64,000 nt of DNA, taken from positions 25,067 through 89,066 of the IMG/VR virus record IMGVR_UViG_3300045988_003641; one strand, 5' to 3'. Position 1 is the first letter of the stretch. Every line of letters begins with the position of its first letter. Below, one piece after another: positions 26,923-58,394 of this stretch. This DNA comes from a virus. Taxonomy: Duplodnaviria > Heunggongvirae > Uroviricota > Caudoviricetes. The notes under the pieces were generated by a model. The model saw only the letters and a program-made list of their open reading frames with translations, ran no database searches and was not told the DNA's origin. The translations under genes were made by a program, and so were the position numbers.

Positions 26923-26951
26923 AAAATAAGCTATAACACCTGACTTGTCAA
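26923..26951 (-). promoter_or_regulatory. sigma70-like promoter for 26878-start gene
   Basis: minus-strand TTGACA-N17-TATTTT. Confidence 0.4.
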
Positions 26952-26994
26952 CAGACTTTATAGCTTATTTGGCAGATTTTTTATAAGGCTACTG

Positions 26995-27368
26995 CCATCC
27001 TTCCATACCACACCTCACCCAACCATACCATGCCTTACCAGACCGCACCTTGCCTCATTAAAAGACCCTCTTAAAAGACCTTTTAAAAAGGTAAGTCTCA
27101 TTTTAATGTAGCTGAGACTAACTACCCGCACCGAACCTCACCTGACCTGACCGCGCCATACCTAACCGCGCCTTACCACACCTCACTTAAAAACCCTATG
27201 AGATACTCTATCGAATATAATTTAAAGACTCTTAAGTGATGTAATCGAATTTTTATGTAGCTCCGATTAACTACCCGCACTTTACCAAACCTCACCCTAC
27301 CCTACCAGACCTTACCTAACCGCGCCGTACCTCATTAAAAGACCCTCTTAAAGACCTTTTAAAAAGGA
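26995..27368. repeat. structured intergenic repeat array A (3 modules)
   Basis: three ~60-bp C/A-rich tracts (26995-27057, 27128-27187, 27277-27334) alternating with a TTAAAAGACC-containing motif (27057-27091, 27187-27241, 27335-27368) and hairpins (27094-27119, 27243-27268) each followed by AACTACCC. Confidence 0.85.
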
Positions 27369-27383
27369 GCCTCCGAAGAGGCT
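27358..27383 (-). terminator. rho-independent terminator of two-gene cassette
   Basis: minus strand AGCCTC-TTCG-GAGGCT then CCTTTTT. Confidence 0.6.
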
Positions 27384-27394
27384 ACCTAGTCAAC

Positions 27395-27835
27395 TTAGAA
27401 AGGTTTTCTACGTTGCTTGTTAATGTTAGCTTTCATAGCAGCTAAATGGTTTTGCTGTTCAATTAGTCGTGAACGTTCTTGATGGCTAAGTACCATAGTG
27501 TTCACATTCTCAATCGCTTGAGTGGCTTGCTTTAAAGCACGACCAATCTTACCAGACATTTTACGTTTTGCAATAGTTGCTTGATGCTTAGGTTCAACCA
27601 CACGATAACCAACACCCATTGAAGCAACCAGATAAATCTTCTCTTCTTTAAGAAGCTTCTCAATAAACTTCTCAAGTCGATTTAAGCGTGTAAGTGCGTA
27701 AGCTTTCATTTCATCTTCGTACTTAACAATGTCACCTTGATAAGTTGGCTTCACAATACCTAAGAAGGTATCCATCTCAGAGTGTGATACAGTGTCACCG
27801 TAACTAAACTTTGCTGCTAATGCTTTTGTATTCAT
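27395..27835 (-). CDS. hypothetical protein (cassette gene 2)
   Basis: 146 aa, basic C-terminus; no motif recognised. Confidence 0.4.
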   Translation of the reverse strand: MNTKALAAKFSYGDTVSHSEMDTFLGIVKPTYQGDIVKYEDEMKAYALTRLNRLEKFIEKLLKEEKIYLVASMGVGYRVVEPKHQATIAKRKMSGKIGRALKQATQAIENVNTMVLSHQERSRLIEQQNHLAAMKANINKQRRKPF

Positions 27836-27837
27836 AA

Positions 27838-28443
<606 letters not shown>

Positions 28444-28520
28444 TTAGTTGATTGTTAAGTTGTTTGTAAAGAACCCTCAACAGAAGACTCTTTAGAAACT
28501 TGGTAGATTTTTAACGTGGA

Positions 28521-28807
28521 TACTACCATCCACCCATACCGTGCCACACCACACCGGACCGTACCATGCCCAACCCTACTACACCAGACCTTATTAAAAG
28601 ACCCTCTCCAAAGACCTTTTAAAAAGGTAAGTCTCATTTTAATGTAGCTGAGACTAACTACCCATACATTACCGCACCATATTATACCCTACCCCACCAT
28701 ACTTCACTGCACCGAGCCACGCATTACATCACTTAAAAAACCTTTTCAAAGACTCTTAAGTGATGCTGGTGAGTACCCGTTGGTTTATGCTGCTCAGTAT
28801 ACTCACC
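28521..28807. repeat. structured intergenic repeat array B (2 modules)
   Basis: C/A-rich tracts 28521-28590 and 28664-28731; TTAAAAGACC motif 28591-28627 and hairpin 28628-28663 near-identical to array A copy 27057-27127; second hairpin 28768-28807. Confidence 0.85.
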
Positions 28808-28823
28808 AAATTTTCTATGTCAA
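28796..28823 (-). promoter_or_regulatory. sigma70-like promoter driving two-gene cassette
   Basis: minus-strand TTGACA-N16-TATACT; inverted repeat GGTGAGTA/TACTCACC overlaps the -10. Confidence 0.5.
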
Positions 28824-28829
28824 CAACTT

Positions 28830-29930
28830 TTATTCGTAGTCTCGAATAACGAGACCAACAGGGAACTGTAAAGAACCCTTACGAGTCATCTTCTGGAACT
28901 GAACCGTTAAAGGTTTCCCGATAAACTCTTCAGGATGCTCAGCAAGATACTGTTTCTTCTCGTGTGTAGTTTTCCATGAAACATCTACAAAGACGTTAGG
29001 AAGAGTCTCTACAACGAACTTACCATGACCACGCTTATCAGTCTTTACACCAGTCACTTTAAACTCTTCAGTGTGCATCTTCTTGTGCTTAATCAAGAAG
29101 TATGAACGGTGACCACACTCATAGAAAGATTCTTCAGAGATTGAACGGTACATTGCACCTTCAAACTTAGCTTCAACCCACTTATCATGAGCTTCATCAA
29201 ACTCTTCCCAAGAATTTACACGGATAGTCTGTACAGGAACAACTCTACAGGTATCCCCAAGCTCAACAATAGGTGAGTTATCAATAACTTCACGACGCTC
29301 AGGCCAAGATTTTGAATTGTCACAGATATCATACCAGTAGAATTTAAGAAGGTGACGGTCTGGATTGTCAGCATTCTTAATCATAGATACAATATCTTCT
29401 AAGTCCCAACCATGAGCATAAATCTCTCCGTCAAAGTCTTCAACTTGCGGATGTAATTTAAGCAACAAAAGCAAATCTGGGATTAGTTCTGTTGGAACGT
29501 TGTAAACAGTATTCTCACGAGAATAAGCTGTGAAACTGACTGAATCAGCATCTCTTGAGATTCTACAACGTACACCATCAAGTTTTGGTTGAGCATCAGC
29601 AGGGAACTTCAGATACTTTGCATGACTAACCTTTGCAGCATCATGAGCAAGCTGTACACCTACCTTCTCAGTATTCTGTGCAGACTCTTTTGTGTAAGCA
29701 TAACCTTTACGGTCAACTTGCTTTTTATACTTAGCAGCAACTTCAAAGAGAGCTTGCTGTTCAGCGTTACGCTCATTCTTTTTACCGATGTTCTTAGGCT
29801 CTGCTGTATACTCTTCAAACATCATCTTGCCATTCTCTTTACCATAGGTTGTAATAACTTTGTCACCTACAGCAACACATGACCAGACGTTGAAGGAACC
29901 ATCTTTATTTTGTTTGTACAGAATTGTCAT
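28830..29930 (-). CDS. ATP-dependent DNA ligase
   Basis: adenylation motif I KLDGVR; start placed at internal ATG with GAGG ribosome-binding site (longest ORF runs to 29966). Confidence 0.65.
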   Translation of the reverse strand: MTILYKQNKDGSFNVWSCVAVGDKVITTYGKENGKMMFEEYTAEPKNIGKKNERNAEQQALFEVAAKYKKQVDRKGYAYTKESAQNTEKVGVQLAHDAAKVSHAKYLKFPADAQPKLDGVRCRISRDADSVSFTAYSRENTVYNVPTELIPDLLLLLKLHPQVEDFDGEIYAHGWDLEDIVSMIKNADNPDRHLLKFYWYDICDNSKSWPERREVIDNSPIVELGDTCRVVPVQTIRVNSWEEFDEAHDKWVEAKFEGAMYRSISEESFYECGHRSYFLIKHKKMHTEEFKVTGVKTDKRGHGKFVVETLPNVFVDVSWKTTHEKKQYLAEHPEEFIGKPLTVQFQKMTRKGSLQFPVGLVIRDYE

Positions 29931-30123
29931 TTTTAACCTCTGAGTGATACCAAGTATTGCAAGCATTACATGCGTAAAGCTCTAAGTCATTTTTATCTGG
30001 TTTGTGGAAACAGTTTGACCCACAACGACACCGGAATAGCTTACCATCAACACGAAGAATGAATGTTTCAAGCTCACCATCTTCTGTAAGAACTGCGTTC
30101 TTAAATTTATCTTCTACAGTCAT
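29905..30123 (-). CDS. zinc-finger protein
   Basis: 72 aa; CRCGSNC...CNAC cysteine cluster. Confidence 0.3.
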   Translation of the reverse strand: MTVEDKFKNAVLTEDGELETFILRVDGKLFRCRCGSNCFHKPDKNDLELYACNACNTWYHSEVKNDNSVQTK

Positions 30124-30326
30124 TTTCTCTTACCACCAATCTCTACGTCGATAACTTGAACATCGCCAGCAACATCAAACTTATGAATGATGCTTTCCAC
30201 AGTGTAAGTCCAACCCTCAATGCGAACCAACTCACCTTCTCGTGGGACGATTGGATTACGTTGAGCTACGGTTGTAGTGGAGTGAACAACATCATAACAA
30301 TAGATGTAGTTTACTAAGACTTCCAT
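30120..30326 (-). CDS. hypothetical protein
   Basis: start moved to internal Met so it does not overlap upstream lipoprotein gene; ORF track gives 30120-30425. Confidence 0.3.
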   Translation of the reverse strand: MEVLVNYIYCYDVVHSTTTVAQRNPIVPREGELVRIEGWTYTVESIIHKFDVAGDVQVIDVEIGGKRK

Positions 30327-30336
30327 CGTGAAAACC

Positions 30337-30606
30337 TCACTCAATAACCGTAGTGTGTGATTGACCATTTTTGCCATAGCTATAAGATGTTGTTGTTTGG
30401 GAGTTTGGACATCTGACAACAACAATATCTCTGCTTATAGCATCACCATGTAACTTGTATACTCTGCAATCTTGCATCTCTGGTGGGAGACTGTAAGAAG
30501 CATTTTTATCTTCATAAGAAGGGTTGCAGCCAGATAGAAAAACAACACCAAGCGCAATTACTGCTTTCCACATAATACTTCCCCAGAGACTGTACATTTT
30601 CTTCAT
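30337..30606 (-). CDS. lipoprotein
   Basis: 89 aa; signal peptide with lipobox-like LSGC. Confidence 0.45.
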   Translation of the reverse strand: MKKMYSLWGSIMWKAVIALGVVFLSGCNPSYEDKNASYSLPPEMQDCRVYKLHGDAISRDIVVVRCPNSQTTTSYSYGKNGQSHTTVIE

Positions 30607-30836
30607 AGCAACTCCAGAATATCAATACGTTCACCTTTGAGTACTCCAGTACGGTCTTTTGCAATCTTACCGTCAACAATAAGAATGTGTGCAGACCTTA
30701 AAGTGTCGCTGTTAAAGGCTTTTACGAACTTGCTAGGCATCACTACAATACACATCTCCTGAATCAACTCTGGAGTATAGCAATTGTCGTGAAGTTGCTG
30801 AATAACGTCTGCAAGTGTCATTTTTGATGTCTCCAA
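30603..30836 (-). CDS. hypothetical protein
   Basis: 77 aa ORF. Confidence 0.3.
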   Translation of the reverse strand: METSKMTLADVIQQLHDNCYTPELIQEMCIVVMPSKFVKAFNSDTLRSAHILIVDGKIAKDRTGVLKGERIDILELL

Positions 30837-31027
30837 TATTCAATATCTACAAGTTCTTGTGCAATGCTTTTAAGGTTACTTTTGAGGAAAACTTTCTCAC
30901 CACCAGACAGGGAAGTGTTATCAATGAGTCTATTCATTCTCTCAAACAACTTCTGCTTACGGTTCTTGATAGTTTCCTTTGAAGCACCTTTCATCATCGC
31001 TGCATGGGTTCTTCCACGGTGACTCAT
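30818..31027 (-). CDS. hypothetical basic protein
   Basis: 69 aa, lysine/arginine-rich. Confidence 0.3.
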   Translation of the reverse strand: MSHRGRTHAAMMKGASKETIKNRKQKLFERMNRLIDNTSLSGGEKVFLKSNLKSIAQELVDIEYWRHQK

Positions 31028-31078
31028 AAGCCCTCCTATATAAGATATAGTATAAGGTACTCTTCCATGAGCACCTTG

Positions 31079-31594
31079 TCAACTTAGTTTTGCAAACTCT
31101 CCGTGGAGTTTTACAGCAGCTTCACAGTAAGCTTTATGGGCTTCTTCTTCCGTTGTGTATGTTCCTATATGTATAGTCTTACCATTATGGTTAATCTGGG
31201 CTACCCACTTACCAGACTTGCTTCTACTTGTGCCTTTTAAGTTTTTTGATGTTCTAGGTTGTCTCCTATTAGACATGTTCTGTTCTTTTGTGGCCTCTCT
31301 TAAATTGTTCCAAGCGTTATTCAAGCCATCTCCATCTTTGTGGTCAATGTGTTTATCAGGCCACTTGCCTGTCATCCAGAACCAAGCAATTCGGTGATTA
31401 CCTGTCCTGTATCCTAAAATCTGTGTGTGCATATACACACCAGACCTTGTGCGCTTAATTGCTCCGGCTTGGCTTCCAATAACCACCCTACTACTATGTG
31501 GAGGTCTACCAATCCATGTTAAGACCCCTGTTTCGGGGTCATAATCTAACCAAGACTTTAACTGTTCATGTGTGAATCCACAATCTCTCATCAA
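31079..31594 (-). CDS. HNH endonuclease with AP2-like DNA-binding domain
   Basis: 171 aa; HNH-like HIDHKDGDGLNNAWNNL; C-terminal KSGKWVAQI...GTYTTEEEAHKAY resembles AP2 domain of HNH homing endonucleases. Confidence 0.55.
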   Translation of the reverse strand: MMRDCGFTHEQLKSWLDYDPETGVLTWIGRPPHSSRVVIGSQAGAIKRTRSGVYMHTQILGYRTGNHRIAWFWMTGKWPDKHIDHKDGDGLNNAWNNLREATKEQNMSNRRQPRTSKNLKGTSRSKSGKWVAQINHNGKTIHIGTYTTEEEAHKAYCEAAVKLHGEFAKLS

Positions 31595-34290
31595 TGTACC
31601 TCATACCAGCTCTTACCAACCTTACCTGTGCCAGTTACAAGCGTCTCACTCTTCAAACCTAAATTCTTAGATGCCTGACCATACATCCAGTCAGTTATGG
31701 CTTTAACTTCTTGAGTCATACTTTCTGGGCATTCCCAACTGTTTTCATCGTGGTATGCCAGCAAAAGCCTAGCACCGATTGCTGGTTTTCGTCCATTTAA
31801 TTTTGTCAATCCTTCTTCACATGCTCTTCTACAAGCAAGATTAATTGCCTCATTTTGAATCTGAGCCTCTGAACCCATGAGCAAATAATTCAATAACTTA
31901 TGTGGAGATTTACACCACAACCAAGCTCCAGCAACCTTTACAAAACCACCTTTAGAGATTGCAGCAGTCTTACCAAATACCTCTTCAAGTGCCTTTTTAG
32001 TTGCTTTGTAGTCAGCTTCCAAGTCATCTAGCAGCTTTTTAATTTTAGGCAAACGAATAAAGTAAGTCTGTTTAGTCAGCGCACCTTCCTGAGTAGTTGC
32101 AGCTTTAATCGTCTTAGCAAACTTCTCATCACCTGCACCGAACAGCAGTGCATAGATACCATTCTTAGCTTTCTTACGACCCTTGCTAATCTCATGAAGA
32201 AGATTCTCATCCTGAGTAGCTCGACAAGTCAAGATGTCCTGCTCATCGTTCAAGTTAAAGTAAATACTGTTCAGTGTATGTGCATCAGTCCCTGAATAGA
32301 CAACGTACAGGTCATTCTCAGAGTCATAGCGAAGGTACTTATCAATCTCTGGGTTGAGGTACTCATCAAAGTGTTTACAGTAATAGCGTCCATCTTCTTG
32401 ACGAATGAACTCAATTTCTTCTTTACCTTGCGTTACCGCTTTGGTGAAGTCTTTATCACCCATAAAGTTACAAAGAAGAACTAGCTGGGCTGAGTTCATG
32501 TCTACAGAGACAACGTTAGTACCTTCCTCACAAATCCACACTGCCCTCATTGGTTCCCCATAGACAGCAGCACCAGACGGTACGTTTACAATACCATACT
32601 GTGTCATACGTCCAGTTGAAGTACCAAACACCATTGCACCAGCACTAAGGCGACCATCAGGACGAATCTGGTTCAACCAACCTTTTTCATCATCCTTTGA
32701 GTTCTCAATAGTTCTGCGTCGGTGCATCAAAGTGTAGTATTTAGCAATCTTCTGTCCAAGCTCACCTTCAATCGTATCGTAAGATGATTCAGTAAGTTTT
32801 GGTGAAGTACGGATTAAGCAAGGCTCAAGCAAATCTGTGTACTTCTTCACAGACCAGTTATGCTCAATGTACTGGACGCCTTCGTGTTCAACATAACTCA
32901 AACCACACCGCTCAACCATTTCCTGCCACTTAGGATGCTTTGTAATCATCTTTTTATTGTCTTTGAAACGACAAACTTTGACAGGGCGACCATCAGAGTC
33001 TTTCTTGTAGTTCCAGTCATCTGGAATCCAACCAACTGATTTCAAGTAGTCTTTAACAACTGCTACCTGAGTCATACGAGAAACTTCAAACTCAATTGGT
33101 GTATATGGTGCATCAATCAAACCTGTGTAGCGACTTGACTCAAGTTCAAAGTGGTTAACAACGTGGCTGTTATAGTACTTCACAGTTTTGACTGTTTTTA
33201 CTGGCTTCCAGTCTTTGCATTTCTTACCAATCTTTGCGTTCAACTCATTGCAAATTGCACGAGCATCCTTCATTGCTACAAAGCCTTCCTTGTACTCTTC
33301 ACCAGTTACAGAGTTGGTTGGTGTATAGCAATTCCTTTTTTCAATGTTAAAAATCTTTGTAGTTGGCTTACCAAATGGTTTGATTTCGTATGTCTGCATC
33401 TCGCCATTACGTACCTGCTGACGATACTTTGTCTTAGGGTACTTGGTAATTCTTTTCAGTCCATCTGCATGACCAAATGTTTCAACATACTCATTCCAAG
33501 CTTTTGCAAACTCTTCTCCAGTGACTTTACCTTTGGTCTTAATAGTTGGAGGTAGATGTGGTTCAACCTCTGAAGCAAGCTCATTAGTCAACTTGTCAAG
33601 TTCCTTTACATGGAACTCCATAAGCTCTTTATCAGCTTTCCAACCATTGATAGCTTGTTGACTCATCCAGAAAGATGTTTCTTTAGCTCGCATGTAGGTT
33701 TCATAAGTGTCTATGCCACACTTCTTAAGCTTGAGATACTCATTATCAAGTGCCCGTTTAGTTTTGGCGTTAATACGGATATCTTCTACAACACGAGTGA
33801 AGATTTCTGCATTCCACACACCCCAATGTTCAATCTCTGGTTTACGAACACCAACACGAGCACCCCATGCAGCCAAGCCATGAGCACCTTTATAACCCTT
33901 TGGAGTTGGTCTATCCATCCACTGAACACGAGACTGGATAAGAGAATCCTGAAAGAAATTACTCCACGGCTTACACTTTGGATTATCAAAGTTCCATAAA
34001 TCCGGTGCAATGTGATTGAAAACCCACCAGTCATAACCTAGACCATTATGAATGCAAAGACGTTTTGCCTTTAACGCAAACTCAATACCTTCACGTAAGC
34101 CACCCTTAATGTACTTGGTATACTTGTGACCGAGGATAGGCTCATCTGTAAAGACCCATACAGGTGGCTCTTCATCGTCAGATTTATAGTCTGCGAAAGC
34201 CATTACGTGCACTTTAGTGAACTCAAGGAGTAAACCATCAGTTTCTGTATCACCAACTAAATGTAAGTTTTTAAAATCTACGTTTTCCAT
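31591..34290 (-). CDS. DNA polymerase, family A, with 3'-5' exonuclease domain
   Basis: ~900 aa; Exo I motif DTETDGL near N-terminus; start set at internal ATG preceded by AGAGGGAG ribosome-binding site (ORF track gives 34320). Confidence 0.85.
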   Translation of the reverse strand: MENVDFKNLHLVGDTETDGLLLEFTKVHVMAFADYKSDDEEPPVWVFTDEPILGHKYTKYIKGGLREGIEFALKAKRLCIHNGLGYDWWVFNHIAPDLWNFDNPKCKPWSNFFQDSLIQSRVQWMDRPTPKGYKGAHGLAAWGARVGVRKPEIEHWGVWNAEIFTRVVEDIRINAKTKRALDNEYLKLKKCGIDTYETYMRAKETSFWMSQQAINGWKADKELMEFHVKELDKLTNELASEVEPHLPPTIKTKGKVTGEEFAKAWNEYVETFGHADGLKRITKYPKTKYRQQVRNGEMQTYEIKPFGKPTTKIFNIEKRNCYTPTNSVTGEEYKEGFVAMKDARAICNELNAKIGKKCKDWKPVKTVKTVKYYNSHVVNHFELESSRYTGLIDAPYTPIEFEVSRMTQVAVVKDYLKSVGWIPDDWNYKKDSDGRPVKVCRFKDNKKMITKHPKWQEMVERCGLSYVEHEGVQYIEHNWSVKKYTDLLEPCLIRTSPKLTESSYDTIEGELGQKIAKYYTLMHRRRTIENSKDDEKGWLNQIRPDGRLSAGAMVFGTSTGRMTQYGIVNVPSGAAVYGEPMRAVWICEEGTNVVSVDMNSAQLVLLCNFMGDKDFTKAVTQGKEEIEFIRQEDGRYYCKHFDEYLNPEIDKYLRYDSENDLYVVYSGTDAHTLNSIYFNLNDEQDILTCRATQDENLLHEISKGRKKAKNGIYALLFGAGDEKFAKTIKAATTQEGALTKQTYFIRLPKIKKLLDDLEADYKATKKALEEVFGKTAAISKGGFVKVAGAWLWCKSPHKLLNYLLMGSEAQIQNEAINLACRRACEEGLTKLNGRKPAIGARLLLAYHDENSWECPESMTQEVKAITDWMYGQASKNLGLKSETLVTGTGKVGKSWYEVH

Positions 34291-34320
34291 TTTTACTCCC
34301 TCTAAAATCATTAACCTCAT

Positions 34321-34547
34321 ACATTACTGCAAAAAATTATAAAAAGCAAGTTGACAATGCACTTGACAAGGTGTTAATCTTTGCGAAGTGGGTTTTTACT
34401 TAAAAGGTTACTTAACAGTTTAACTATACAGATACTTTAAATCTCTTAAAAGATTATTTAATAGCTTTTAAAAAGCTTTAAAGTATAACGTATAGAATAC
34501 GTTAAGATAAAAGATTAAAACTTAATAGTTACTTAAAAGAGGCTTAC
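34321..34547. promoter_or_regulatory. divergent early promoter region
   Basis: AT-rich 227-bp gap between divergent operons; perfect TATAAT on minus strand (34336-34341); TTGACA hexamers on plus strand (34351, 34364). Confidence 0.45.
34486..34504. promoter_or_regulatory. palindromic candidate operator
   Basis: perfect inverted repeat TAACGTAT-AGA-ATACGTTA, ~45 bp upstream of start codon at 34548. Confidence 0.5.
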
Positions 34548-34970
34548 ATGCAGAAAATGTTTGTTCACCCAGACATAGCTGACTTTGTTAGAGCTTTGCA
34601 GAAGTTGGAAGAACTTGACATTGCTGCTCAACGGGAATATGCTCACCATCACAGGAGAATGGTTGATATACAACATGAAATAGAGTTGTCTGAAAACTAT
34701 GAAGATGACTTAAAATGCTCTGTATTTGAGCATATGAAAGATGTTGCTACAGCAAGACGTAAAGCTAAAGACACAGTTGCTTTACTGGATTCTCTTAAAA
34801 AGAGGTTGCAAAGTGGTACAGACCTGTGTAATCTAGCGTCACTGATTAACGATGTTGAAACTTCTTGGGATAGGCACTATTATCCACGTTCTGAAAAGAC
34901 ACTTGACTTTTCTTCATCAGAAAACTTAAAATGTTCTAGAAAGAAACTTAACCAACTGAGAGAGAAATAA
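34548..34970 (+). CDS. hypothetical early protein
   Basis: 140 aa, predicted helical; first gene of rightward operon. Confidence 0.35.
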   Translation: MQKMFVHPDIADFVRALQKLEELDIAAQREYAHHHRRMVDIQHEIELSENYEDDLKCSVFEHMKDVATARRKAKDTVALLDSLKKRLQSGTDLCNLASLINDVETSWDRHYYPRSEKTLDFSSSENLKCSRKKLNQLREK

Positions 34971-34971
34971 T

Positions 34972-35784
34972 ATGAATATCAATGTGGAACAGATGCTTGA
35001 AGAGAAAGGTGTTGATGAAGCATTCTTAATCAATGCCGTAGAAAGCATGGCTATGATTCTTCGTGGAAATAACTACACAGAACAGTTTATGCCTGCAAGC
35101 TACAACTTACCTGAAGACAAGTCTGATAGTAGTGCTTTTGCAGAGCAGGTTAATATGATGCTGTGTGACAAAACGCTTGCTTTAGCATCTATCGTTGTAG
35201 GTGTCGATGCTCTTGCAGAGTTCATTTTTTATGAGATGCAGAAAAATGACTATATTGCCATGACATCTGAAGAAAAAGACTCGCTGCTGCTCTTAGATAA
35301 TGATGAGCTAGTTGGCCTGTTAATTTCTTCAACGAGTGCTGTTATGGCTGCTCTTGAGAAGCGTATGAATGAGAAGTTGTCACGGTATGAAAAACTTGAT
35401 TGGGGCGTAGAAGAATTAAACCCACGAATCAAAGAGATTATCCAGCAAACCAAAGCTTCTTTGGAAGAAGCTGTGAAAGATGATTATGTAGCTGGCATAG
35501 AACCACTACAGGTGAAAGTTGCATTGATGATGCCAGCTATCTCTACGATGATGAATATCGTTGCATTAATCCAGCTTTCACAGATGATGGGTACAACCAT
35601 CGAGTTCATTGAGAGTATGACTGGTGGTGTCAGTATGCAAGCAATCAATGATGTTTTGGTGAGCATTGGAGCTTCAATCATTGAAGAGAAACTGCGCATT
35701 AACTTTGGTGACGATTTTGTGAAGCAAATCGCAGCTATGGCTGAAAAAGAACACTCACAGATTACCACTGAACAACTGCACTGA
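34972..35784 (+). CDS. hypothetical early protein
   Basis: 270 aa ORF. Confidence 0.35.
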   Translation: MNINVEQMLEEKGVDEAFLINAVESMAMILRGNNYTEQFMPASYNLPEDKSDSSAFAEQVNMMLCDKTLALASIVVGVDALAEFIFYEMQKNDYIAMTSEEKDSLLLLDNDELVGLLISSTSAVMAALEKRMNEKLSRYEKLDWGVEELNPRIKEIIQQTKASLEEAVKDDYVAGIEPLQVKVALMMPAISTMMNIVALIQLSQMMGTTIEFIESMTGGVSMQAINDVLVSIGASIIEEKLRINFGDDFVKQIAAMAEKEHSQITTEQLH

Positions 35785-35801
35785 GTTTTTATAAATATTA
35801 C

Positions 35802-35827
35802 AAGCCTCCTTAGTTGGGGGCTTTTTA
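35802..35827 (+). terminator. putative terminator
   Basis: imperfect stem AGCCTCC/GGGGGCT followed by TTTTT. Confidence 0.4.
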
Positions 35828-35845
35828 GTAATTAAGGGAGATAGA

Positions 35846-36589: not shown

Positions 36590-36597
36590 AAGAGAGA

Positions 36598-36798
36598 ATG
36601 AAGATGAGAGTAAAAGACAATTTTAAAGTTATTGACCACCGTTTAGTGGAACTCTCATCTCTTTCCAATGAGGTAATGATTGAACGTCTTAAGAGAGTTG
36701 AATCACGAAGGAAAGAGATTGCAGATGAAATTCATGAACTGGACAAGATTGAAAATGGATTGAAGGCAGAACTACAACGAAGAGGTGCTAATGTCTAA
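36598..36798 (+). CDS. hypothetical protein
   Basis: 66 aa helical ORF. Confidence 0.3.
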   Translation: MKMRVKDNFKVIDHRLVELSSLSNEVMIERLKRVESRRKEIADEIHELDKIENGLKAELQRRGANV

Positions 36799-43333: not shown

Positions 43334-43339
43334 ACTAGG

Positions 43340-47438: not shown

Positions 47439-47445
47439 AATGAAA

Positions 47446-47467: not shown

Positions 47468-47486
47468 AGCATGTAAAGGGGCAATA

Positions 47487-49631: not shown

Positions 49632-49640
49632 AACTTGACA

Positions 49641-49680
49641 AGGTGATGTGGGTCTTGATAGGCTTACATCACCTTTTTTA
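49641..49680 (+). terminator. putative terminator after nrdD
   Basis: AGGTGATGT...ACATCACCT stem followed by TTTTT. Confidence 0.5.
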
Positions 49681-49785
49681 TTGGATGTTAGATATGGCAG
49701 AAAGTATTATTGGGTTGTTCATAGGTTCTGTCTCACTAGGGTTCTTTTTAGGACTCTCTTATTGTGAATTGAAAGGTAAGTTAAA

Positions 49786-49986
49786 ATGTTTAAGATATCA
49801 AAAGCGTTGATATACATACTCCATATTCTAGTCTTCTTCTTTGGGGTTAGTGTTATGGTATGGGGTTTTTCAGACCCACAATGGAGTTTCTCATATCATG
49901 GTCAGATGGATTTATGGTCATGCTTCAAACCATTTTTAGGGTTAGTCATAGCATTCAGTGCATTACCAACTAAGGTGAAATTATGA
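49786..49986 (+). CDS. small membrane protein
   Basis: 66 aa, two hydrophobic segments. Confidence 0.25.
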   Translation: MFKISKALIYILHILVFFFGVSVMVWGFSDPQWSFSYHGQMDLWSCFKPFLGLVIAFSALPTKVKL

Positions 49987-50378
49987 TTAAGTTGAGCCAA
50001 AAACAGCTAGAGTGGATTAAAGATTATGCCTCAGAGTGTGGCTCTTGTGAAAAGAATCACGTAAGATACTCAACATTCCACACGGTCTTCACATTGTATA
50101 TCGGTGACAATGTTCTAAGTGATTCTGTAGAAGATGGTGTAGCATTGCCTAATGAATTGCTTGACAAATTAGCTGTAGTCACTGGAACTTGGTCTGAAGA
50201 AGATGGTCACGAACTATCTGATGATGTTGTCTTCTACAGTCTTGAAAACATCATGAATCCAGAGTACATTATGCTAATGACTTGCGCACAAGATTGTGTA
50301 CCATTACAAAACTTCATTAAAGAGCATTGTGAAGAGTTTATTACTAAACAGGTTCCTTGTCAGGTGGTGTTTGAATGA
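49983..50378 (+). CDS. hypothetical protein
   Basis: 131 aa. Confidence 0.3.
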   Translation: MIKLSQKQLEWIKDYASECGSCEKNHVRYSTFHTVFTLYIGDNVLSDSVEDGVALPNELLDKLAVVTGTWSEEDGHELSDDVVFYSLENIMNPEYIMLMTCAQDCVPLQNFIKEHCEEFITKQVPCQVVFE

Positions 50379-50674
50379 GTAAAACAATTCGAAGAAAAGG
50401 TTTGAAGAACGTTCATGGACTCTATGAGTGGAGAAATGAGGTACGTAACAGAGAAAATGCTTCAGATGTCTACTTCCATTCTGATATGATGTCCAGAAAA
50501 GGAGGCTCTTATGACTTTACAAGCCAGCCTTGTAGAGAGATTAAGAAGGCCACTAAACGTCTTACAAGAACACAAATAAGGCAGCTTTCTAAGACATCCT
50601 TCTTAGATGAAGACTTTGACATTGATAGCAAGTCTCCAAAGAAAGCTGCTAAGAACACTTATATGTATTGGTGA
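50375..50674 (+). CDS. hypothetical protein
   Basis: 99 aa. Confidence 0.3.
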   Translation: MSKTIRRKGLKNVHGLYEWRNEVRNRENASDVYFHSDMMSRKGGSYDFTSQPCREIKKATKRLTRTQIRQLSKTSFLDEDFDIDSKSPKKAAKNTYMYW

Positions 50675-53635: not shown

Positions 53636-55417
53636 ATGACTAAATCACTTTATGCAGTACCAGCAGGTTTAAACGCGGATGCTTACAAGTCTGGCCATGT
53701 TTACCAGTACCCTAGTGCAACAGAATACTTGATGTTCAACCTGACACCACGTAGTGACAAATGGTTTAACAGCCCTTTAGCAATTGACGGTGTAGTGGCT
53801 TTTGGTATTCAACGTTTTGTTAAAGATTACTTGATAGACCACTGGAACGCCACTTTCTTTGAACGTGATAAAAAAGAAGCAATTGACGAAATCTTAGAAG
53901 TCATGAATGGTGTTCTGGGTAAAGATGCTATCGGTCGAGAGCATTGGGAAGCACTTCACGACTTAGGTTATCTACCAGTTGAAGTATACGCGGTAGAAGA
54001 AGGTACAGTTGTCCCTATGCGTGTCCCAATGATTGTCTTCCAGAACACTGTTTCAGGTTTCCATTGGGTAGCAGGTTATCTGGAAGATGCTTTCTCTGCT
54101 GAGATTTGGAAGGCTTGCACTATTGCAACTATTGCATTGCATTACAAACGCATCTGTAAGAAGTGGGCTGACCTTACTTGTGACAACGACTTACATCTGC
54201 CCTATCAGTGCCATGACTTTGCTATGCGTGGTATGTCCGGCTTTACTGATGACGCATTTAACGCTGTAGGTCACTTAACCAGCTTTAAAGGAACCGATAG
54301 CTTCCCTGCTGTATACACGGCTAAACGCATCTATGGACAGTCTTACCCAATCTCTGATATTGGTAGTTCTGTACCAGCCACTGAACACTCTGTAATGTGT
54401 GCAAACATTGCTTGGGAAGGTGGTAATGAATTGATTGAAGAAGAAAGACGCTTTAAAGGTGAGTTACAAACCTTCCGTCGTTTCTTAACAGAAACTTACC
54501 CAACTGGTATTGCAAGTATTGTTTCAGATACTTATAACTTCTGGAGAACTGTGTCAGAAATCTTACCAGCACTCCGTAAAGAAATTATGGAACGTGATGG
54601 TAAACTGGTAATTCGCCCTGACTCTGGAGACCCTGTACATATTGTCACAGGTTATAAAGCAATCCACTTAGAGTGTGCTAAAAAGGCTTATTACGAGCAC
54701 CTAAGCAAGCTTGAAGCCAGCGACACAATGTTGAATGCTGTTCTGAACATGAAGCTTGAAAACATCAACTATGGTATTGCTGGATGGCTACTGTCAGAAG
54801 GCTACGAAATGGTTGTTGACAGAGAAGACTTTGAAGTAGCCGATACAGTGTTGCTGAAAGATGCTTACATCAACGGCTCTGCAAACGTTGTAACACGTCC
54901 TGTAGCGGAGATTGATGGAGCTATTAAGACACTGTACAACATCTTTGGGGGAACTATTAACTCTAAAGGGTTTAAGGTACTGGATGAGCACATTGGCCTT
55001 ATCTATGGCGACTCTATCACGCTGGAACGTGCAAACGAAATCCTGAAGCGTCTGTATGAAATGGGTTTTGCAAGCTCTAACGTAGTGTTTGGTGTAGGCT
55101 CTTACACTTACCAGTACATGACTCGTGACACCTTTGCATTTGCTGTTAAAGCAACTCTTGCAAGCATTGGTGGTAAAGAGATTATGCTTGCAAAAGACCC
55201 TAAAACAGATAGTGGTGTTAAGAAGTCTGCTTTTGGTGGTGTAGTACCTATGTGGAATGGTGATAAGTTGAAAGCTGTAGATGGCTATGGATTCCAGAGC
55301 TTTGCAGATGTACTTGAACATCCAGCTTGTGCTCTACGTTTAGTCTTTAGTGACTCTGAGCAGTATGGTTACACATCTCTTGGTGATATTCGAAATAATA
55401 TTGACAAGCAGCTTTAA
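53636..55417 (+). CDS. nicotinamide phosphoribosyltransferase family protein (NAMPT-like)
   Basis: 593 aa; GTDSFPA and PATEHS motifs resemble NAMPT signatures. Confidence 0.65.
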   Translation: MTKSLYAVPAGLNADAYKSGHVYQYPSATEYLMFNLTPRSDKWFNSPLAIDGVVAFGIQRFVKDYLIDHWNATFFERDKKEAIDEILEVMNGVLGKDAIGREHWEALHDLGYLPVEVYAVEEGTVVPMRVPMIVFQNTVSGFHWVAGYLEDAFSAEIWKACTIATIALHYKRICKKWADLTCDNDLHLPYQCHDFAMRGMSGFTDDAFNAVGHLTSFKGTDSFPAVYTAKRIYGQSYPISDIGSSVPATEHSVMCANIAWEGGNELIEEERRFKGELQTFRRFLTETYPTGIASIVSDTYNFWRTVSEILPALRKEIMERDGKLVIRPDSGDPVHIVTGYKAIHLECAKKAYYEHLSKLEASDTMLNAVLNMKLENINYGIAGWLLSEGYEMVVDREDFEVADTVLLKDAYINGSANVVTRPVAEIDGAIKTLYNIFGGTINSKGFKVLDEHIGLIYGDSITLERANEILKRLYEMGFASSNVVFGVGSYTYQYMTRDTFAFAVKATLASIGGKEIMLAKDPKTDSGVKKSAFGGVVPMWNGDKLKAVDGYGFQSFADVLEHPACALRLVFSDSEQYGYTSLGDIRNNIDKQL

Positions 55418-55432
55418 AAGTATATGATAAAA

Positions 55433-55453
55433 GGCTCCCGTAGGAGCCTTTTT
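55433..55453 (+). terminator. rho-independent terminator
   Basis: GGCTCC-CGTA-GGAGCC then TTTTT. Confidence 0.6.
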
Positions 55454-55470
55454 AATTTCTGGAGAAGACT

Positions 55471-55806
55471 ATGAAAATCAAAGAAATGAACATCAACATT
55501 GTCTTAGAAGAACGTTGGGAGAACATCAAGAAGCATGAAGATGGTCATAAGTTCCTTAACAAAATTTTAGTAGCAGCTAAAGAAGAACTGGCTGGCAAGG
55601 TTGCAGCAGCAATCACAATAAAGGTTTGTGTAAAAGGTCTTCCACAACATCACCAATTTGCACTTGACGAGTTTAAAGAAAGCTTCTACAATCCAAACAA
55701 ACAGATGCTTGAAAGTAACTTTGCAGTATCTACAAGTATCGTTCATGACAGAAGCTTTATCCTTTACAAGAATATGAGAGGTGAGTCATGCAAGCATATT
55801 GGATAG
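55471..55806 (+). CDS. hypothetical protein
   Basis: 111 aa. Confidence 0.3.
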   Translation: MKIKEMNINIVLEERWENIKKHEDGHKFLNKILVAAKEELAGKVAAAITIKVCVKGLPQHHQFALDEFKESFYNPNKQMLESNFAVSTSIVHDRSFILYKNMRGESCKHIG

Positions 55807-55964
55807 AAATTTTACTGTCACTTGGTAGTGTAGCAGTATTTGTTTACCTCCTTTGTAAGTACTTTGCAGAGCACAAAAAATGTGACTACTGTAATGGAGA
55901 GGGGTACATAAGGGCAGGATGTTGTCCTATGTGTGGTGGTTCTGGTAAAATGTTTAATAAGTAA
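55788..55964 (+). CDS. small membrane-anchored zinc-finger protein (58 aa), not in ORF track
   Basis: ATG preceded by GAGAGGTGA; N-terminal hydrophobic helix then two CxxCxGxG motifs (CDYCNGEG, CPMCGGSG). Confidence 0.35.
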   Translation: MQAYWIEILLSLGSVAVFVYLLCKYFAEHKKCDYCNGEGYIRAGCCPMCGGSGKMFNK

Positions 55965-55992
55965 TTTAACAGTAAACTGAGAGGAAAGTATT

Positions 55993-58359
55993 ATGCGCAT
56001 GGTAAATGACCACGCAGAAGTGATTAAGAGTTCAACTTCTTTAGAGACGTCTCAAGCACAGATTACAATGACACCTGAGATGTTCAGCCTTTTGAGTTCT
56101 GGTGTATATACCTTTAAAGAAAGGGCAGTGATTCGTGAACTGTCATGTAACGCAGTAGATGCTCAGAAAGAAGCTGGAAAAGAGAACATCCCATTCCATG
56201 TGCATTTACCTACTCGTTTTGAGCCTTACTTCGAAGTTCGTGATTTTGGAACTGGATTGACTCATGATAAAGTTATGAGTTTGTACCTAAACTATGGAGC
56301 TTCTACGAAGAATGACTCTAATGACTACATTGGTGCAATGGGTATCGGCTCAAAGTCACCATTTGCAATTGCTCAGTCATTCACAGTATCTAGTTATGTT
56401 GACGGTGTTGTTAATAAGTACTCTGTTTATCTTGAGAATGGTATCCCTCAAGTAACTAAGCTGACAACTAACCAAACAAAAGAACCTAATGGTTTAGCTG
56501 TACGTGTGGCAGTTGCTGACCACCGTATCTCAAAGTTCTTTGAAGAAGCTGGGAATGTGTACTCATACTTCACTGTAAAACCAGAAAGTAATATTGAGTA
56601 CGACGATGTATTAGCAGATATGAACGTAATTGCCCGTGAAGAAGGTGTTTATGATGCCATGATTCATAAGCACAGCTGGCGTTCTAGTGATAACAGGACA
56701 GAGTTTAATGTGGTGATGGGTAACATTGCCTATCCAGTGAACATGGAAGCGTTACTTGGTGATGATTTCTTCAAAGTCTTGCCAGAGTTTTTCCGTAGGA
56801 GCGTAGACCTTGTAAACATCTACATGCCTATTGGTTCAGTTGCTATTGCAGCTTCTCGTGAAGCATTGCAGATGAATGACACGACAAAAAATGTTATCAT
56901 TGAGGCTACTAAAAAGATAACTGAAGCAATTACAAAGGATGTTATCAAGAAAGTTAATAGCCAACCTACACTCATGGATGCTGCACAGGCTTATGCTGAG
57001 TTACGTTTGAACTCACGAGAGATGTTTAATGCTGTGTGTCCAAAGCTAGAGTGGGGTGGCGTTAAGCTTGATTCTCTGGAAGAAGAATTGCTAAACATTC
57101 GTCGTGGAATTATCTACGCAGAAGACGGCTCAGTCATTTATGAACGTGATGGTAAAGGCAATATTAAGGTTGATAGGAACGGGAACAATATACCTAAAGT
57201 AGATTATCTTTATGACCCAGTTGCTTATGTCAAGTTCAACTCTTTAGAGAGTAAGATTCGTGCAACATCGCTTTCCTACACTCAAGAGGCAAGTATGTTC
57301 AATATCTTTGGTGCAATGCGTAAAAGCCAAATTGAACAGTTTTTGTTCGTGATTAATGACCGTCGCAATAAAAATGGTACTGAGAAGACTGTAGGCCGCA
57401 ATCAGATTCTGCGTGGTGCATGTCGAGACTACGCCAGTGAGTCAAGTCTGTTTCACAGATACAATGGTATTGTGTTTGTATTCTCGACTGAAAAAGAGTT
57501 AGACGACCTAATCAATCTACACAAACTTGATAAAAGCTTGTTAAAGATTGTGAAAATGTCTGATAAGGAGCACCATTACCAGCGCAAAGAAGCTGTAAGG
57601 GGTGTTGTAAAACTCTGGAAAGCTGTTCCAGCAGAAGGTGTAGCTTCCTATAAAGAGGTTTCAGAGGACTTAGACACAATTGAAGAACCTCAGCTTTACA
57701 TTAAGGCAATTGGTGACACAGTTGATGGTGAATGTTTTTGCTCATCCCCAGAAGATGTAGCTAAGTCAGTTGCTAATGTTATTGGAAAGACAGTCTATGT
57801 TTTCCGAAAAGCAAATTGGAAAAAGATACCAGAAGACTGGATTGAAGTAGATGAGAAGCTCTTGAACGACAGCTTAACTGATGTTCATTGGATTAATCAT
57901 AACAGGTATACGACACGCATCTACATGAATGGTGTTCTTGACCTTACAAGTAGCTGGATTATTGCCAGAAACTTTACGTTCAATAACAGGAAGATTTCTC
58001 GTGGCTATTGCTATTCACGGGATACAAACAAAACTATCTTCCTAGAAGGTAATGAAGAGGCTGTAGAGGCAATGTTTGGTAAAATCCAGTATGTTGCTGC
58101 ACCATTTGCATACACTTACACTATTAGTGTGTTGAAAACTTTGAAAGATTGTCTTGACAACGATACAAAGCTTTACAAGAAAATTAAGAAAGCTGGTGAC
58201 CGTATGGTTATTAAGGTGACAAACTACCTTTCAAAAAGAAAACAAGAAAACTTCTTGCTTTCTCATTTAGATTGGAATAAAGTGTCACCCATCGAAGTGA
58301 GTAAGTTCTTAGGTTTTGATGTGAAGTGTGTTCCAGAAGGAACTACAGTTTACGATTAA
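55993..58359 (+). CDS. rIIA: rIIA-like protein
   Basis: 788 aa; N-terminal GHKL ATPase-like motifs (RELSCNAVDA, RDFGTGL, GAMGIGSKSPF) closely resemble T4 RIIA N-terminus. Confidence 0.8.
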   Translation: MRMVNDHAEVIKSSTSLETSQAQITMTPEMFSLLSSGVYTFKERAVIRELSCNAVDAQKEAGKENIPFHVHLPTRFEPYFEVRDFGTGLTHDKVMSLYLNYGASTKNDSNDYIGAMGIGSKSPFAIAQSFTVSSYVDGVVNKYSVYLENGIPQVTKLTTNQTKEPNGLAVRVAVADHRISKFFEEAGNVYSYFTVKPESNIEYDDVLADMNVIAREEGVYDAMIHKHSWRSSDNRTEFNVVMGNIAYPVNMEALLGDDFFKVLPEFFRRSVDLVNIYMPIGSVAIAASREALQMNDTTKNVIIEATKKITEAITKDVIKKVNSQPTLMDAAQAYAELRLNSREMFNAVCPKLEWGGVKLDSLEEELLNIRRGIIYAEDGSVIYERDGKGNIKVDRNGNNIPKVDYLYDPVAYVKFNSLESKIRATSLSYTQEASMFNIFGAMRKSQIEQFLFVINDRRNKNGTEKTVGRNQILRGACRDYASESSLFHRYNGIVFVFSTEKELDDLINLHKLDKSLLKIVKMSDKEHHYQRKEAVRGVVKLWKAVPAEGVASYKEVSEDLDTIEEPQLYIKAIGDTVDGECFCSSPEDVAKSVANVIGKTVYVFRKANWKKIPEDWIEVDEKLLNDSLTDVHWINHNRYTTRIYMNGVLDLTSSWIIARNFTFNNRKISRGYCYSRDTNKTIFLEGNEEAVEAMFGKIQYVAAPFAYTYTISVLKTLKDCLDNDTKLYKKIKKAGDRMVIKVTNYLSKRKQENFLLSHLDWNKVSPIEVSKFLGFDVKCVPEGTTVYD

Positions 58360-58364
58360 AGTGT

Positions 58365-58394
58365 TTGACAAGGGGCTTCAAAGCCCCTTAGAAT
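58365..58394 (+). promoter_or_regulatory. sigma70-like promoter with hairpin in spacer
   Basis: TTGACA-N18-TAGAAT; spacer holds palindrome AGGGGCTT-CAA-AGCCCCT. Confidence 0.5.

Follow-up and report, generated by a model that had tools for sequence, protein, structure and literature searches.

In phage T4, translation of e, soc, 49, and I-TevI is controlled by hairpins that contain a late promoter (TATAAATA) and mask the ribosome-binding site. The sites described here resemble these elements in having a promoter-like sequence inside a hairpin predicted to be foldable only by RNA from upstream, but their ribosome-binding sites lie 15 to 60 nt beyond the hairpins and their promoters are of the sigma-70 type. 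PeSL (promoter-early stem-loop) cassettes are known from the T4-type phages RB49, phi1, T4/PST, and KVP40/nt-1 (Arbiol et al. 2010, PMC2839356; Comeau et al. 2014, PMC4122927) and combine a sigma-70-consensus promoter with a G/C-rich stem-loop that occupies the −35/−10 spacer or overlies the −10 box. They are intergenic, occur in several copies per genome, are followed by a ribosome-binding site and start codon, and are associated with gene shuffling in the form of cassette-bounded indels and mini-circles. They are interpreted as terminating or attenuating transcription from upstream and then restarting it, and lacZ fusions showed both promoter and terminator activity (PMC2839356). For Felix O1, the genome paper left open how the many terminators are passed, by read-through or from downstream secondary promoters, and how timing is controlled; the paper recognized hardly any promoters in the divergent regions and listed 57-bp repeats without interpretation (PMC3185647).

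We analyzed a 64-kb stretch of phage DNA (64,000 nt; the window), which is from a Felixounavirus (Felix O1-like myovirus). At eight sites, A to H, the window carries sigma-70-like hexamers overlapped by a stem-loop. As in PeSL cassettes, these sites are intergenic and followed by the Shine-Dalgarno sequence and start codon of the next gene, with the exception of site G; a further candidate likeness to PeSL cassettes seems clear at sites C (AAAAAATTATAAAAAGCAAG) and G (AATAAAAGTTG) and modest at the others. The differences are that the phage belongs to another subfamily, the Ounavirinae, that its copies lie in the conserved replication/nucleotide-metabolism module and have a common core of only 11 to 13 nt, and that they are unlike the classic PeSL 70- to 100-bp repeats beside orphan genes in hyperplastic regions. 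PeSL-like long repeats beside orphan genes are found only in the early regions of relatives (Bas63) and as the 57-bp repeats of Felix O1.

Promoter hexamers and stem-loops share a layout

The earlier note on this DNA had listed four copies of TTGACAAG, and all are present, at 26944–26951 (minus strand), 34363–34370, 49635–49642, and 58365–58372 (plus strand). The identity that it described between two extended copies holds for the 13-mer ACTTGACAAGGTG at 34361–34373 and 49633–49645, while the start given for the former, 34363, is that of the hexamer and not of the 13-mer, which begins at 34361. Absent from that list were equivalent TTGACAAG sites at 31075–31082 (minus; AGTTGACAAGGTG, intergenic) and 55401–55408 (plus) and sites with the same layout and another extension at 28823 (minus), 34351 (plus), and 39186 (plus). 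Across the window, TTGACAAG occurs 11 times versus 4.9 expected, a count reached by 3 of 100 shuffles, and this excess is weak by itself. The five intragenic copies (3305, 12314, 24495, 33592, and 39387) are close to chance expectation. The other six are all on the sense strand and intergenic or at a gene end, positions that make up 3% of strand positions (binomial p = 3.8e-7). Intergenic DNA amounts to only 3.1 kb of the window, and TTGACAAG ties for its most widespread 8-mer (five distinct regions; 0.16 expected).

A TAnnnT sequence is located 16 to 18 nt 3′ of TTGACA in 8 of 9 intergenic sense boxes versus 7 of 52 boxes elsewhere (Fisher p = 1.7e-5); given a background rate of 6.4%, the probability of 8 of 9 is 2.5e-9. 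Four sites match the consensus at 11 of 12 hexamer positions, and several −10 boxes are weak (TACCTT, TAGGCT, TAATCT, and TATTTT). A generic promoter scan of the window gave no excess over shuffles (44 vs 47; 61 vs 49). Because of the spaced TAnnnT in 8 of 9 intergenic sense boxes, we read the sites, by sequence, as ordinary host sigma-70 promoters and not as a phage-specific class. With E. coli sigma-70 and T4-type early promoters they share TTGACA, the 16- to 18-nt spacer, TAnnnT, and, at several sites, A-rich upstream bases (AAAAGTTG-TTGACA); they differ from ordinary promoters of these types in the weakness of several −10 boxes and in the conserved hairpin in the spacer/−10 region.

Each site is overlapped by a stem-loop, which lies in the spacer (F), over or around the −10 box (B, D, H, G, and C), around the −35 box (A), or directly after the −10 box (E). 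The corresponding 80-nt segments have a mean folding z of −2.5 versus −0.38 for the other 52 TTGACA (Mann-Whitney p = 4e-5), and the folding of seven of the eight individual sites is matched by ≤2.7% of shuffles. AG directly follows TTGACA in 6 of 9 intergenic sense boxes versus 5 of 52 elsewhere (Fisher p = 5e-4) and AGG in 4 of 9 versus 1 of 52 (p = 1e-3). At sites B, D, and F and at the second box of site C, AAG(G) is the 5′ base of the stem, and its partner is CCTT (CTTTG at the second box of C). Many terminators in the window start with A-rich/G-rich sequence (AAGG, AAAAGG, or TAAGGGG), and several of them begin with the same AAGG...CCTT foot. At orthologous D, F, H, and E sites, the extension changes while the hexamers stay, and this variation speaks against AAG(G) as a conserved, class-defining −35 extension. 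Sites G and H and the first box of site C share the layout without AAG. The TTGACA of TTGACAAG(G) is a standard bacterial −35 box followed by the first bases of a conserved hairpin, and AAG(G) is mostly the A-rich/G-rich foot of a stem whose partner strand is CCTT, with or without a T-run. Of the earlier note's proposal of a phage-specific early or middle promoter class, the promoter-like sites and the hairpins, which are real and conserved, stand; "phage-specific" is not supported, in view of host sigma-70 consensus hexamers and a variable extension. "Early or middle" timing is plausible, because unmodified host polymerase would recognize the sites and they are located in replication/nucleotide-metabolism genes.

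A U-tract is present only at D, E, and possibly A. Sites D (16-pair stem, T6) and E (10-pair stem, T5) have the textbook form of an intrinsic (Rho-independent) terminator, a G/C-rich stem followed by a T-run. Sites B, F, G, and H differ in having no U-tract (tails include TTATAC, TTAGAAT, and TCTTCAT), and at all sites promoter hexamers lie over the hairpin. Hairpins other than those at U-tract sites can be called terminators only tentatively. The stems include G-U pairs, which indicates a structure of read-through RNA and not one of the DNA in the promoter spacer.

Individual sites across genera

We compared the sites among Felixounavirus, Suspvirus, Mooglevirus, Kolesnikvirus-like phages, and a Hafnia phage. 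Flanks and stems differ from genus to genus around retained hexamers and spacing; different stems occupy the same position at H (four), F (three), and G (two). Formal covariation is modest, with one double-sided change at D.

Site F (58365–58394, plus) lies between rIIA and rIIB. As the earlier note had described, it reads TTGACA (58365–58370)-N18-TAGAAT (58389–58394) with a palindrome filling the spacer, AAGGGGCTT (58370–58378) and AAGCCCCTT (58381–58389), which lacks a U-tract (z −2.9). In 29 IMG/VR loci both the hexamers and the hairpin are retained; the spacer measures 18 nt in Felixounavirus and 17 nt in Suspvirus/Mooglevirus. Some genomes have the loop in inverted orientation (TTCAAA vs TTTGAA), a Hafnia-like phage has another stem at this position, the extension is TTGACAGGGGCT in Suspvirus and Mooglevirus, and TTGACAGGGG occurs at F. 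Six cassettes in the early region of the relative Bas63 follow the pattern T(T/C)TACA-NGGGGCT...AGCCCC, each with TAnnnT in the loop at exactly N17, and are adjoined by small unknown genes; these cassettes are the 57-bp repeats of Felix O1. In their upstream bases the Bas63 cassettes (TAAAGTAC-TTTACA-AGGGGCTT) match site F (TAAAGTGT-TTGACA-AGGGGCTT), and site F is a paralogue of the Bas63/Felix O1 cassettes. A weaker relative at 20322–20347 (plus), before the tail-fibre gene, consists of TTTACA followed by the terminator GGGGCT-TTAT-AGCCCC and TTTT; it has no TAnnnT 16 to 18 nt after TTTACA.

Site D (49635–49682, plus) lies just past the nrdD stop codon, with TTGACA at 49635–49640. The earlier note's placing of the nrdD terminator hairpin directly at the 49633 copy is borne out: a 16-pair stem (49640–49655/49660–49675; z −6.8) starts on the last A of TTGACA and is followed by T6 (49676–49681). 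A −10-like TAGGCT (49659–49664; N18) lies within the hairpin, and to judge by its sequence site D is a canonical intrinsic terminator with a putative promoter overlaid. Pairing in the stem is 98.4% across 12 distinct sequences; four pairs show GU↔AU changes and there is one GC→AU double change, a substitution pattern that fits a sense-strand RNA. TTGACA is kept in 11 of 12 variants, and the bases upstream differ; the extension is TTGACATGG in five loci and elsewhere TTGACAATG, TTGACGAGG, or AAGATGG.

At site E (55401–55457, plus), TTGACA (55401–55406) falls within the final codons of the gene for nicotinamide phosphoribosyltransferase (NAMPT), and TATGAT (55423–55428; N16) completes an 11/12 hexamer match (z −2.7). 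A 10-pair terminator hairpin (55429–55452) and a T-run directly follow the −10 box, and the predicted start, at ~55435, would lie within the 5′ arm. Three genera retain the hexamers, the terminator loop has opposite orientations in different genomes, and AAG, a Lys codon here, is AGA in phage mistaenkt.

Site B (31049–31082, minus) is located between a homing-endonuclease gene and ORF 30818–31027, and its TTGACA (31082–31077) includes the TGA stop codon of the upstream gene. The stem is formed by AAGGTGCTC (31077–31069) and GAGTACCTT (31062–31054; z −2.9); TACCTT (31059–31054; N17) lies within the 3′ arm, and an additional TATACT is present at 31054–31049. Felixounavirus, Suspvirus, and Mooglevirus all retain the element, its conserved block beginning exactly at TTGACA even with a different upstream gene; TACCTT is invariant in 12 of 12 loci, and TATACT is TATACA in 4. 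Indels adjoin B (homing endonuclease present or absent) and E (an extra gene in Bas63 and Sf17), and the site D element is replaced together with four small genes in PMBT20 and five IMG/VR loci; none of the indels examined at B, D, and E has a cassette at both ends.

Site A (26917–26970, minus) precedes ORF 26495–26878, which starts the unit that ends with the genes for dihydrofolate reductase and thymidylate synthase. An AT-rich stem of 13 bp (26970–26958/26936–26924; z −3.0) surrounds TTGACA (26951–26946), TATTTT is at 26928–26923 (N17), and TATACT is also present at 26922–26917; the site is conserved in Felixounavirus and Mooglevirus. Site H (39186–39223, plus), upstream of gene 39251–40108, has TTGACA at 39186–39191, arms AGAGTATC (39194–39201) and GGTACTCT (39216–39223; z −2.8), and TAGAAT (39209–39214; N17) in the loop. 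Across five groups, the spacing is constantly 17, with TTGACA, TTGCAA, or TTGACT and TAnnnT as boxes, four unrelated stem sequences, and six extensions (AT, AG, AGG, ATG, GGG, and AAG). The alignable subset of H contains no double-sided change and is not better than shuffles. Site G (28767–28823, minus), after the DNA ligase gene, has TTGACA at 28823–28818 and TATACT at 28801–28796 (N16). The 5′ arm TGGTGAGTA (28808–28800) abuts the −10 box, the 3′ arm TACTCACCA (28775–28767) lies past the predicted start, and the next ORF is ~150 nt downstream, past a repeat module. In phage mistaenkt, hexamers and N16 are kept with another stem (CCGGTAGT/ACTACCGG) in the same position.

Site C (34351–34390, plus) lies in the divergent region between the DNA polymerase gene (minus) and the replication operon (plus). 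Two TTGACA, 12 nt apart, are arranged as GTTGACAA-N5-CTTGACAAGGTG, and a copy is found in the other divergent region of relatives. The first box (34351–34356) pairs with TAATCT (34375–34380; N18), and the second (34363–34368), that of the 13-mer, is without a −10 box of its own. A two-part hairpin (CACTT/AAGTG and CAAGG/CTTTG) is possible and weak (z −1.4). The tandem boxes are kept in four genera, with a spacing of 10 and TAATGT at N17 in the Hafnia phage. A read-through role is inapplicable at site C because there is no same-strand gene upstream.

Proposed mechanism and competing readings

The sites are probably composite signals in which a host sigma-70-type promoter is overlapped by a stem-loop, as in T4-type PeSL cassettes. 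The analysis directly shows the layout, its statistics, and the conservation across genera; promoter activity, start sites, terminator activity, and other hairpin roles we infer from sequence. Unmodified host RNA polymerase would read TTGACA as the −35 box and TAnnnT 16 to 18 nt downstream as the −10 box. The stem-loop begins on or just after the last −35 base (B, D, F, and H), encloses the −35 box (A), or straddles or follows the −10 box (G and E). By standard promoter geometry, transcription would start ~7 nt beyond the −10 box, downstream of the 5′ arm or, at E, within it; RNA started locally would therefore be unable to fold the hairpin, while RNA reading through from upstream could. The hairpins with U-tracts at D and E would terminate the upstream transcript, those at A, B, F, G, and H would attenuate, pause, or 3′-stabilize it, and the promoter would restart transcription for the downstream gene inside the same ~40 to 60 bp.

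Three other readings bear on the same evidence. TTGACAAGG(TG) could be the extended −35 element of a phage-specific class, read by a polymerase that a phage factor has modified or bound by a regulator of phage origin, for instance the Cro/CI-type protein of 25989–26318, with that factor switching the promoters on or off. Consistent with this, the 11-mer TTGACAAGGTG is common to B, the second box of C, and D and recurs in the second divergent region of Bas63, CTTGACAAG forms a 4-1-4 palindrome, the boxes of site C are about one helical turn apart, and the second of these boxes is kept in four genera within the spacer of another promoter. We nevertheless consider this reading unlikely: the extension varies freely at orthologous D, F, and H sites around a constant hexamer, −10 boxes and spacing follow the host consensus, G, H, and the first box of C do without AAG, and the Felix O1 genome paper reported no polymerase-modifying proteins (PMC3185647). 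A "regulated spacer structure" at the DNA level, with a cruciform in supercoiled DNA or a dimeric-protein site modulating the overlapped promoter, would suit palindromes that overlap spacer or −10 box at every site and that at F and E are perfect and short with 2- to 4-nt centers. It is very improbable, however, since stems differ between sites and genera, and there is thus no common operator; many G-T wobbles (three or four at D, one at B) are A-C mismatches on the other strand, and the 10- to 25-nt loops at G, H, A, and C make cruciform extrusion very unfavorable.

The overlap might also be a functionless coincidence of independent terminators or RNA-stability hairpins with promoter-like hexamers, some of which (e.g., at D) would be nonpromoters. 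The very short intergenic spacers, the AAGG-like starts of many terminators, and the generic promoter scan at or near shuffles would agree with this, but perfect TTGACA with correctly spaced TAnnnT is strongly concentrated at these sites, the relative placement of boxes and stem is kept across genera despite stem replacement, and the site D TTGACA is retained in nearly all variants although it lies outside the stem. We therefore give coincidence a low probability and favor composite signals.

We note that the second TTGACAAGG at site C, kept without its own −10 box, is unexplained by the composite-signal model. That the tandem boxes and 11-mer are phage-factor sites switching a promoter subset, or that read-through-only folding is a general switch, is doubtful. 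In the latter variant, processing, stability, or timing would separate read-through from locally started transcripts in the replication module.

Implications for Felix O1-like phages

A promoter-plus-hairpin signal is known from T4-like phages and is apparently new for the Felix O1-like group; the result is incremental and not a new principle. It adds a second myovirus subfamily to the T4-type phages as carriers of PeSL-type promoter/stem-loop cassettes, and the 57-bp repeats of Felix O1 fall into the same class of cassette. Perfect −35 boxes are indeed present in the divergent polymerase region. The layout, with restart promoters directly over hairpins, offers a concrete, testable answer to how terminators are passed, and may help to annotate and engineer Felixounavirus genomes, for example those of Bas63 and Felix O1, which serve in biocontrol and as model phages. 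If true, a factor acting at site C or a read-through-only switch would be a regulatory layer new for Felix O1-like phages.

Distribution of the TTGACA-AAG(G) motif

Over positions 34000-38000, the window shares 99.7% identity with Felixounavirus LF110P1 and 90-96% with >200 Felix O1-like phages, and its gene order was assigned from the annotated relative Bas63 (JohannRWettstein). Structural genes occupy 1-23358 on the plus strand. Thymidylate synthase, dihydrofolate reductase, ligase, small genes and DNA polymerase follow on the minus strand (23395-34320), and the plus strand from 34548 onwards carries the replication and nucleotide-metabolism genes (primase/helicase, nrdAB, nrdDG, ribose-phosphate pyrophosphokinase, nicotinamide phosphoribosyltransferase [NAMPT], rIIA and rIIB) together with the lysis genes. 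Based on our own ORF map, intergenic sequence totals only ~3.1 kb. The long structural gene at 11072-13354 contains a perfect 54-nt tandem repeat (12678-12794, +; 2.2 copies, 100% identity).

The recurrent motif described in the earlier note, TTGACA extended by AAG(G), is real. The 8-mer TTGACAAG occurs 11 times in the window (4.9 expected), and the 13-mer ACTTGACAAGGTG is exact at both 34361-34373 and 49633-49645. Five copies are intragenic, approximately the number expected by chance. The other six are all on the transcribed strand, either within intergenic DNA or bordering it, a concentration well beyond chance (P = 3.8e-7). Ranked by the number of distinct intergenic regions sharing it, TTGACAAG is the joint top 8-mer. 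These six copies are at sites A (26951, −), B (31082, −), C2 (34363, +), D (49635, +), E (55401, +) and F (58365, +), of which B and E, equivalent to the others, were missing from the earlier list; the 11-mer TTGACAAGGTG is common to four sites. Three further perfect TTGACA boxes are intergenic on the sense strand and lack AAG, i.e. C1 (34351, +), which forms a tandem pair with C2, G (28823, −) and H (39186, +).

Predicted promoter boxes and overlapping hairpins

Eight of the nine intergenic sense-strand TTGACA boxes are followed by TAnnnT at 16-18 nt, compared to 7 of the 52 remaining TTGACA in the window (Fisher P = 1.7e-5); against the background rate of TAnnnT (6.4%), 8/9 has P = 2.5e-9. 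The candidate −10 boxes are TATTTT at A, TACCTT at B and TAGAAT at H (spacer 17), TAATCT at C1, TAGGCT at D and TAGAAT at F (spacer 18), and TATGAT at E and TATACT at G (spacer 16). Judged by their sequence, the TTGACA sites are predicted promoters of the host sigma-70 type. A generic promoter scan of the window gave totals no higher than those of shuffled sequences, and such a scan alone is therefore no evidence. C2 has no −10 of its own. Despite this lack, the second TTGACAAGG at C persists in four genera, and Bas63 carries a duplicate of it in its other divergent region. A near-consensus promoter-like TTGACA-N17-TAGAAT (38847-38875, +; 11/12 hexamer positions) is located within the small ORF 38739-39032, at a distance of ~340 nt on the upstream side of site H.

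A stem-loop overlaps every site from A to H. At F, the stem AAGGGGCTT/AAGCCCCTT occupies the whole spacer; at D, a 16-pair stem begins at the last A of TTGACA, has TAGGCT within it and ends in T6; at B, the 3′ arm of the stem AAGGTGCTC/GAGTACCTT contains the −10. At H, the loop contains the −10, with a 5′ arm that opens 2 nt past the −35 and a 3′ arm that opens 1 nt past the −10; at G, the 5′ arm adjoins the −10, with the 3′ arm 25 nt downstream. Site A has an AT-rich 13-bp stem around the −35 box, site E a terminator beginning right after the −10, and site C a possible two-part hairpin. At 7 of the 8 sites, the folding was matched by ≤2.7% of dinucleotide shuffles, and as a group, using mononucleotide shuffles, the sites were far more structured than the other TTGACA (mean z of −2.5 vs −0.38, P = 4e-5). 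U-tracts are missing from most of these hairpins, and a search of the entire window against all Rfam families gave no match.

At B, C2, D and F, AAGG forms the base of the stem and pairs with CCTT or CTTTG; AAG is a Lys codon at E and lies in the loop at A. AAGG, AAAAGG or TAAGGGG also open other terminators of the window. Several terminators (27368-27383, 43334-43379, 47439-47486, 59549-59648 and 61345-61396) have a C(UUCG)G tetraloop (GCCTCTTCGGAGGC, GGTCTCTTCGGAGACC, GGCTGCTTCGGCGGCC, GGCTCCTTCGGGAGCC), as is common in T4 too. By established promoter geometry, transcription usually starts ~7 nt beyond the −10 box. Starts so placed would fall downstream of the 5′ arm at each site, or inside it at E, so that the hairpin could be folded only by RNA arriving from upstream.

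Conservation in relatives and alternative readings

We compared the homologous regions of Bas63 and PMBT20 (Felixounavirus), mistaenkt (Suspvirus), Sf17 (Mooglevirus), EAP4 and PMBT37 (Kolesnikvirus-like) and Hafnia phage SarahDanielle, together with 17-29 additional IMG/VR loci per site. At F, both hexamers and the GGGGCT/AGCCCC hairpin persist between flanks that have diverged among relatives; the 8-mer itself is not conserved, since Suspvirus and Mooglevirus carry TTGACAGGGGCT with a 17-nt spacer. A Hafnia-like phage has TTGACA with another stem (AAGTGGTC/GGCCACTT) at this site, and Kolesnikvirus-like phages have the hairpin only. At D, TTGACA is present in 11 of 12 distinct sequences with a variable extension (ATGG, AATG, GAGG, AAGA); its stem is 98.4% paired, with switches between G-U and A-U at four pairs and one double change from G-C to A-U. 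The conserved stretch at B starts exactly at TTGACA, whether a homing endonuclease or the polymerase lies upstream. Site H keeps a spacing of 17 throughout with TTGACA, TTGCAA or TTGACT as −35 and TAGAAT, TAAGAT, TAATAT, TAACAT or TAAAGT as −10, and carries four unrelated stems at one position. Covariation at H was not significant, and no better than in shuffles, in the alignable Suspvirus/Mooglevirus subset; the Felixounavirus rows could not be pooled with it because they are off by one register. Site G of mistaenkt retains TTGACA-N16-TATACT with a different stem, and the hairpin at C shows weak formal covariation. Between otherwise near-identical genomes (relative loci L001, L005 and L040), hairpin loops are inverted with the stems unchanged (window 55429-55452 and 58370-58389): site E is written CCCGTAGG here where relatives have CCTACGGG, and site F is either CTTCAAAG or CTTTGAAG, depending on the genome.

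Two other readings were considered and rejected. A, like B, has a TATACT 22-23 nt past TTGACA, which as the true −10 would define a long-spacer class; this was ruled out by site B, where 4 of 12 loci have A in place of the last T of TATACT and TACCTT at N17 never varies, and the unequal registers of TATACT at A and B are a further point against such a class. A shared DNA operator is opposed by stems that vary by site and genus and contain G-T pairs; the frequent G-U pairs favour a predicted RNA structure on the sense transcript over a DNA palindrome or a protein-binding operator. Of the earlier proposal of a phage-specific promoter class with regulated structure, the predicted promoters and the hairpins stand, phage specificity does not because the boxes are host-type, and regulation of the structure is unsupported.

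Neighbouring repeats and related cassettes

A 107-140-nt repeat is present four times (62-83% identity; 26879-27394 and 28508-28829, −), flanking a gene cassette (27395-28637) that is missing in PMBT20 and mistaenkt. Each copy contains TTTTAAAAGGTCTTTTAAGAGGGTCTTTTAATGAGG, a G-rich run (GGT every 4-8 nt) and GGGTAGTTAGTCTCAGCTACATTAAAATGAGACT, and had no Rfam match; the four may serve the cassette as sites of recombination. At the same place, Bas63 has GGTATGGTTA four times in tandem. Directly after the phosphatase gene, TTCATTTTCAAAnnGTGCAG(GTA) occurs in three to four copies (63751-63967, +), which could be a further promoter class or protein-binding sites; one related copy, TTTTGTGCAGAGTGCTGTATAAT, lies at ~59600, and a comparable array, TTCATTTTCAAATTGTGCTTATAA, occupies the corresponding position in the Hafnia phage (L008 40794-41252). 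The polymerase-divergent region (34390-34547, +) is dense in short CTTAAAAG, CTTTAAAG and TTTTAAAAAGC motifs, which may be regulator or origin sites; its Hafnia phage equivalent (L008 10140-10377) has a similar set (CTATTTAGAA, TCTTTTAAAAGA). In some Felixounavirus/Suspvirus genomes (PMBT20, L005 28219-28881; L096, L097, L099, L100, L106), one homing-endonuclease-like gene directly after the nrdD stop replaces site D and four small genes (window 49700-50674). Outside the window, Bas63 has 1.6 kb of non-coding sequence dense in TTGTTA(A/G) and CTGTAAAG repeats (70493-72154; L007 6994-8655). [quoted passage not shown]

Published promoter lists for Felix O1-like phages are generic BPROM or neural-network predictions, and our literature search found neither transcription-start or RNA-seq data for these phages nor an application to them of the PeSL (promoter-early stem-loop) idea; among phage-related matches, the term occurred only in the two T4-type papers (PMC2839356, PMC4122927). 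PeSLs were assayed by lacZ fusions and proposed to drive gene shuffling (PMC2839356; PMC4122927). The window sites have the same layout, with predicted promoter activity; unlike PeSLs, they do not form long repeats, and their neighbours are conserved genes. Indels adjoin B, D and E, none with a cassette at both ends. Membership of the window sites among PeSLs is thus only partial. The early region of Bas63 has six intergenic cassettes of the form T(T/C)TACA-NGGGGCT...AGCCCC-AGATAAAG, each with TAnnnT in the loop at exactly N17 and with upstream bases matching site F; the Felix O1 genome paper (PMC3185647) lists these cassettes as 57-bp direct repeats and gives them no interpretation. The Hafnia phage has many TTTTGTAAAGGGGTYT-loop-AGACCCCTTTGAAGAACTA repeats. 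Since the Bas63 cassettes and the Hafnia repeats show the same arrangement, the pattern of box, AAGG(G) and stem is subfamily-wide.
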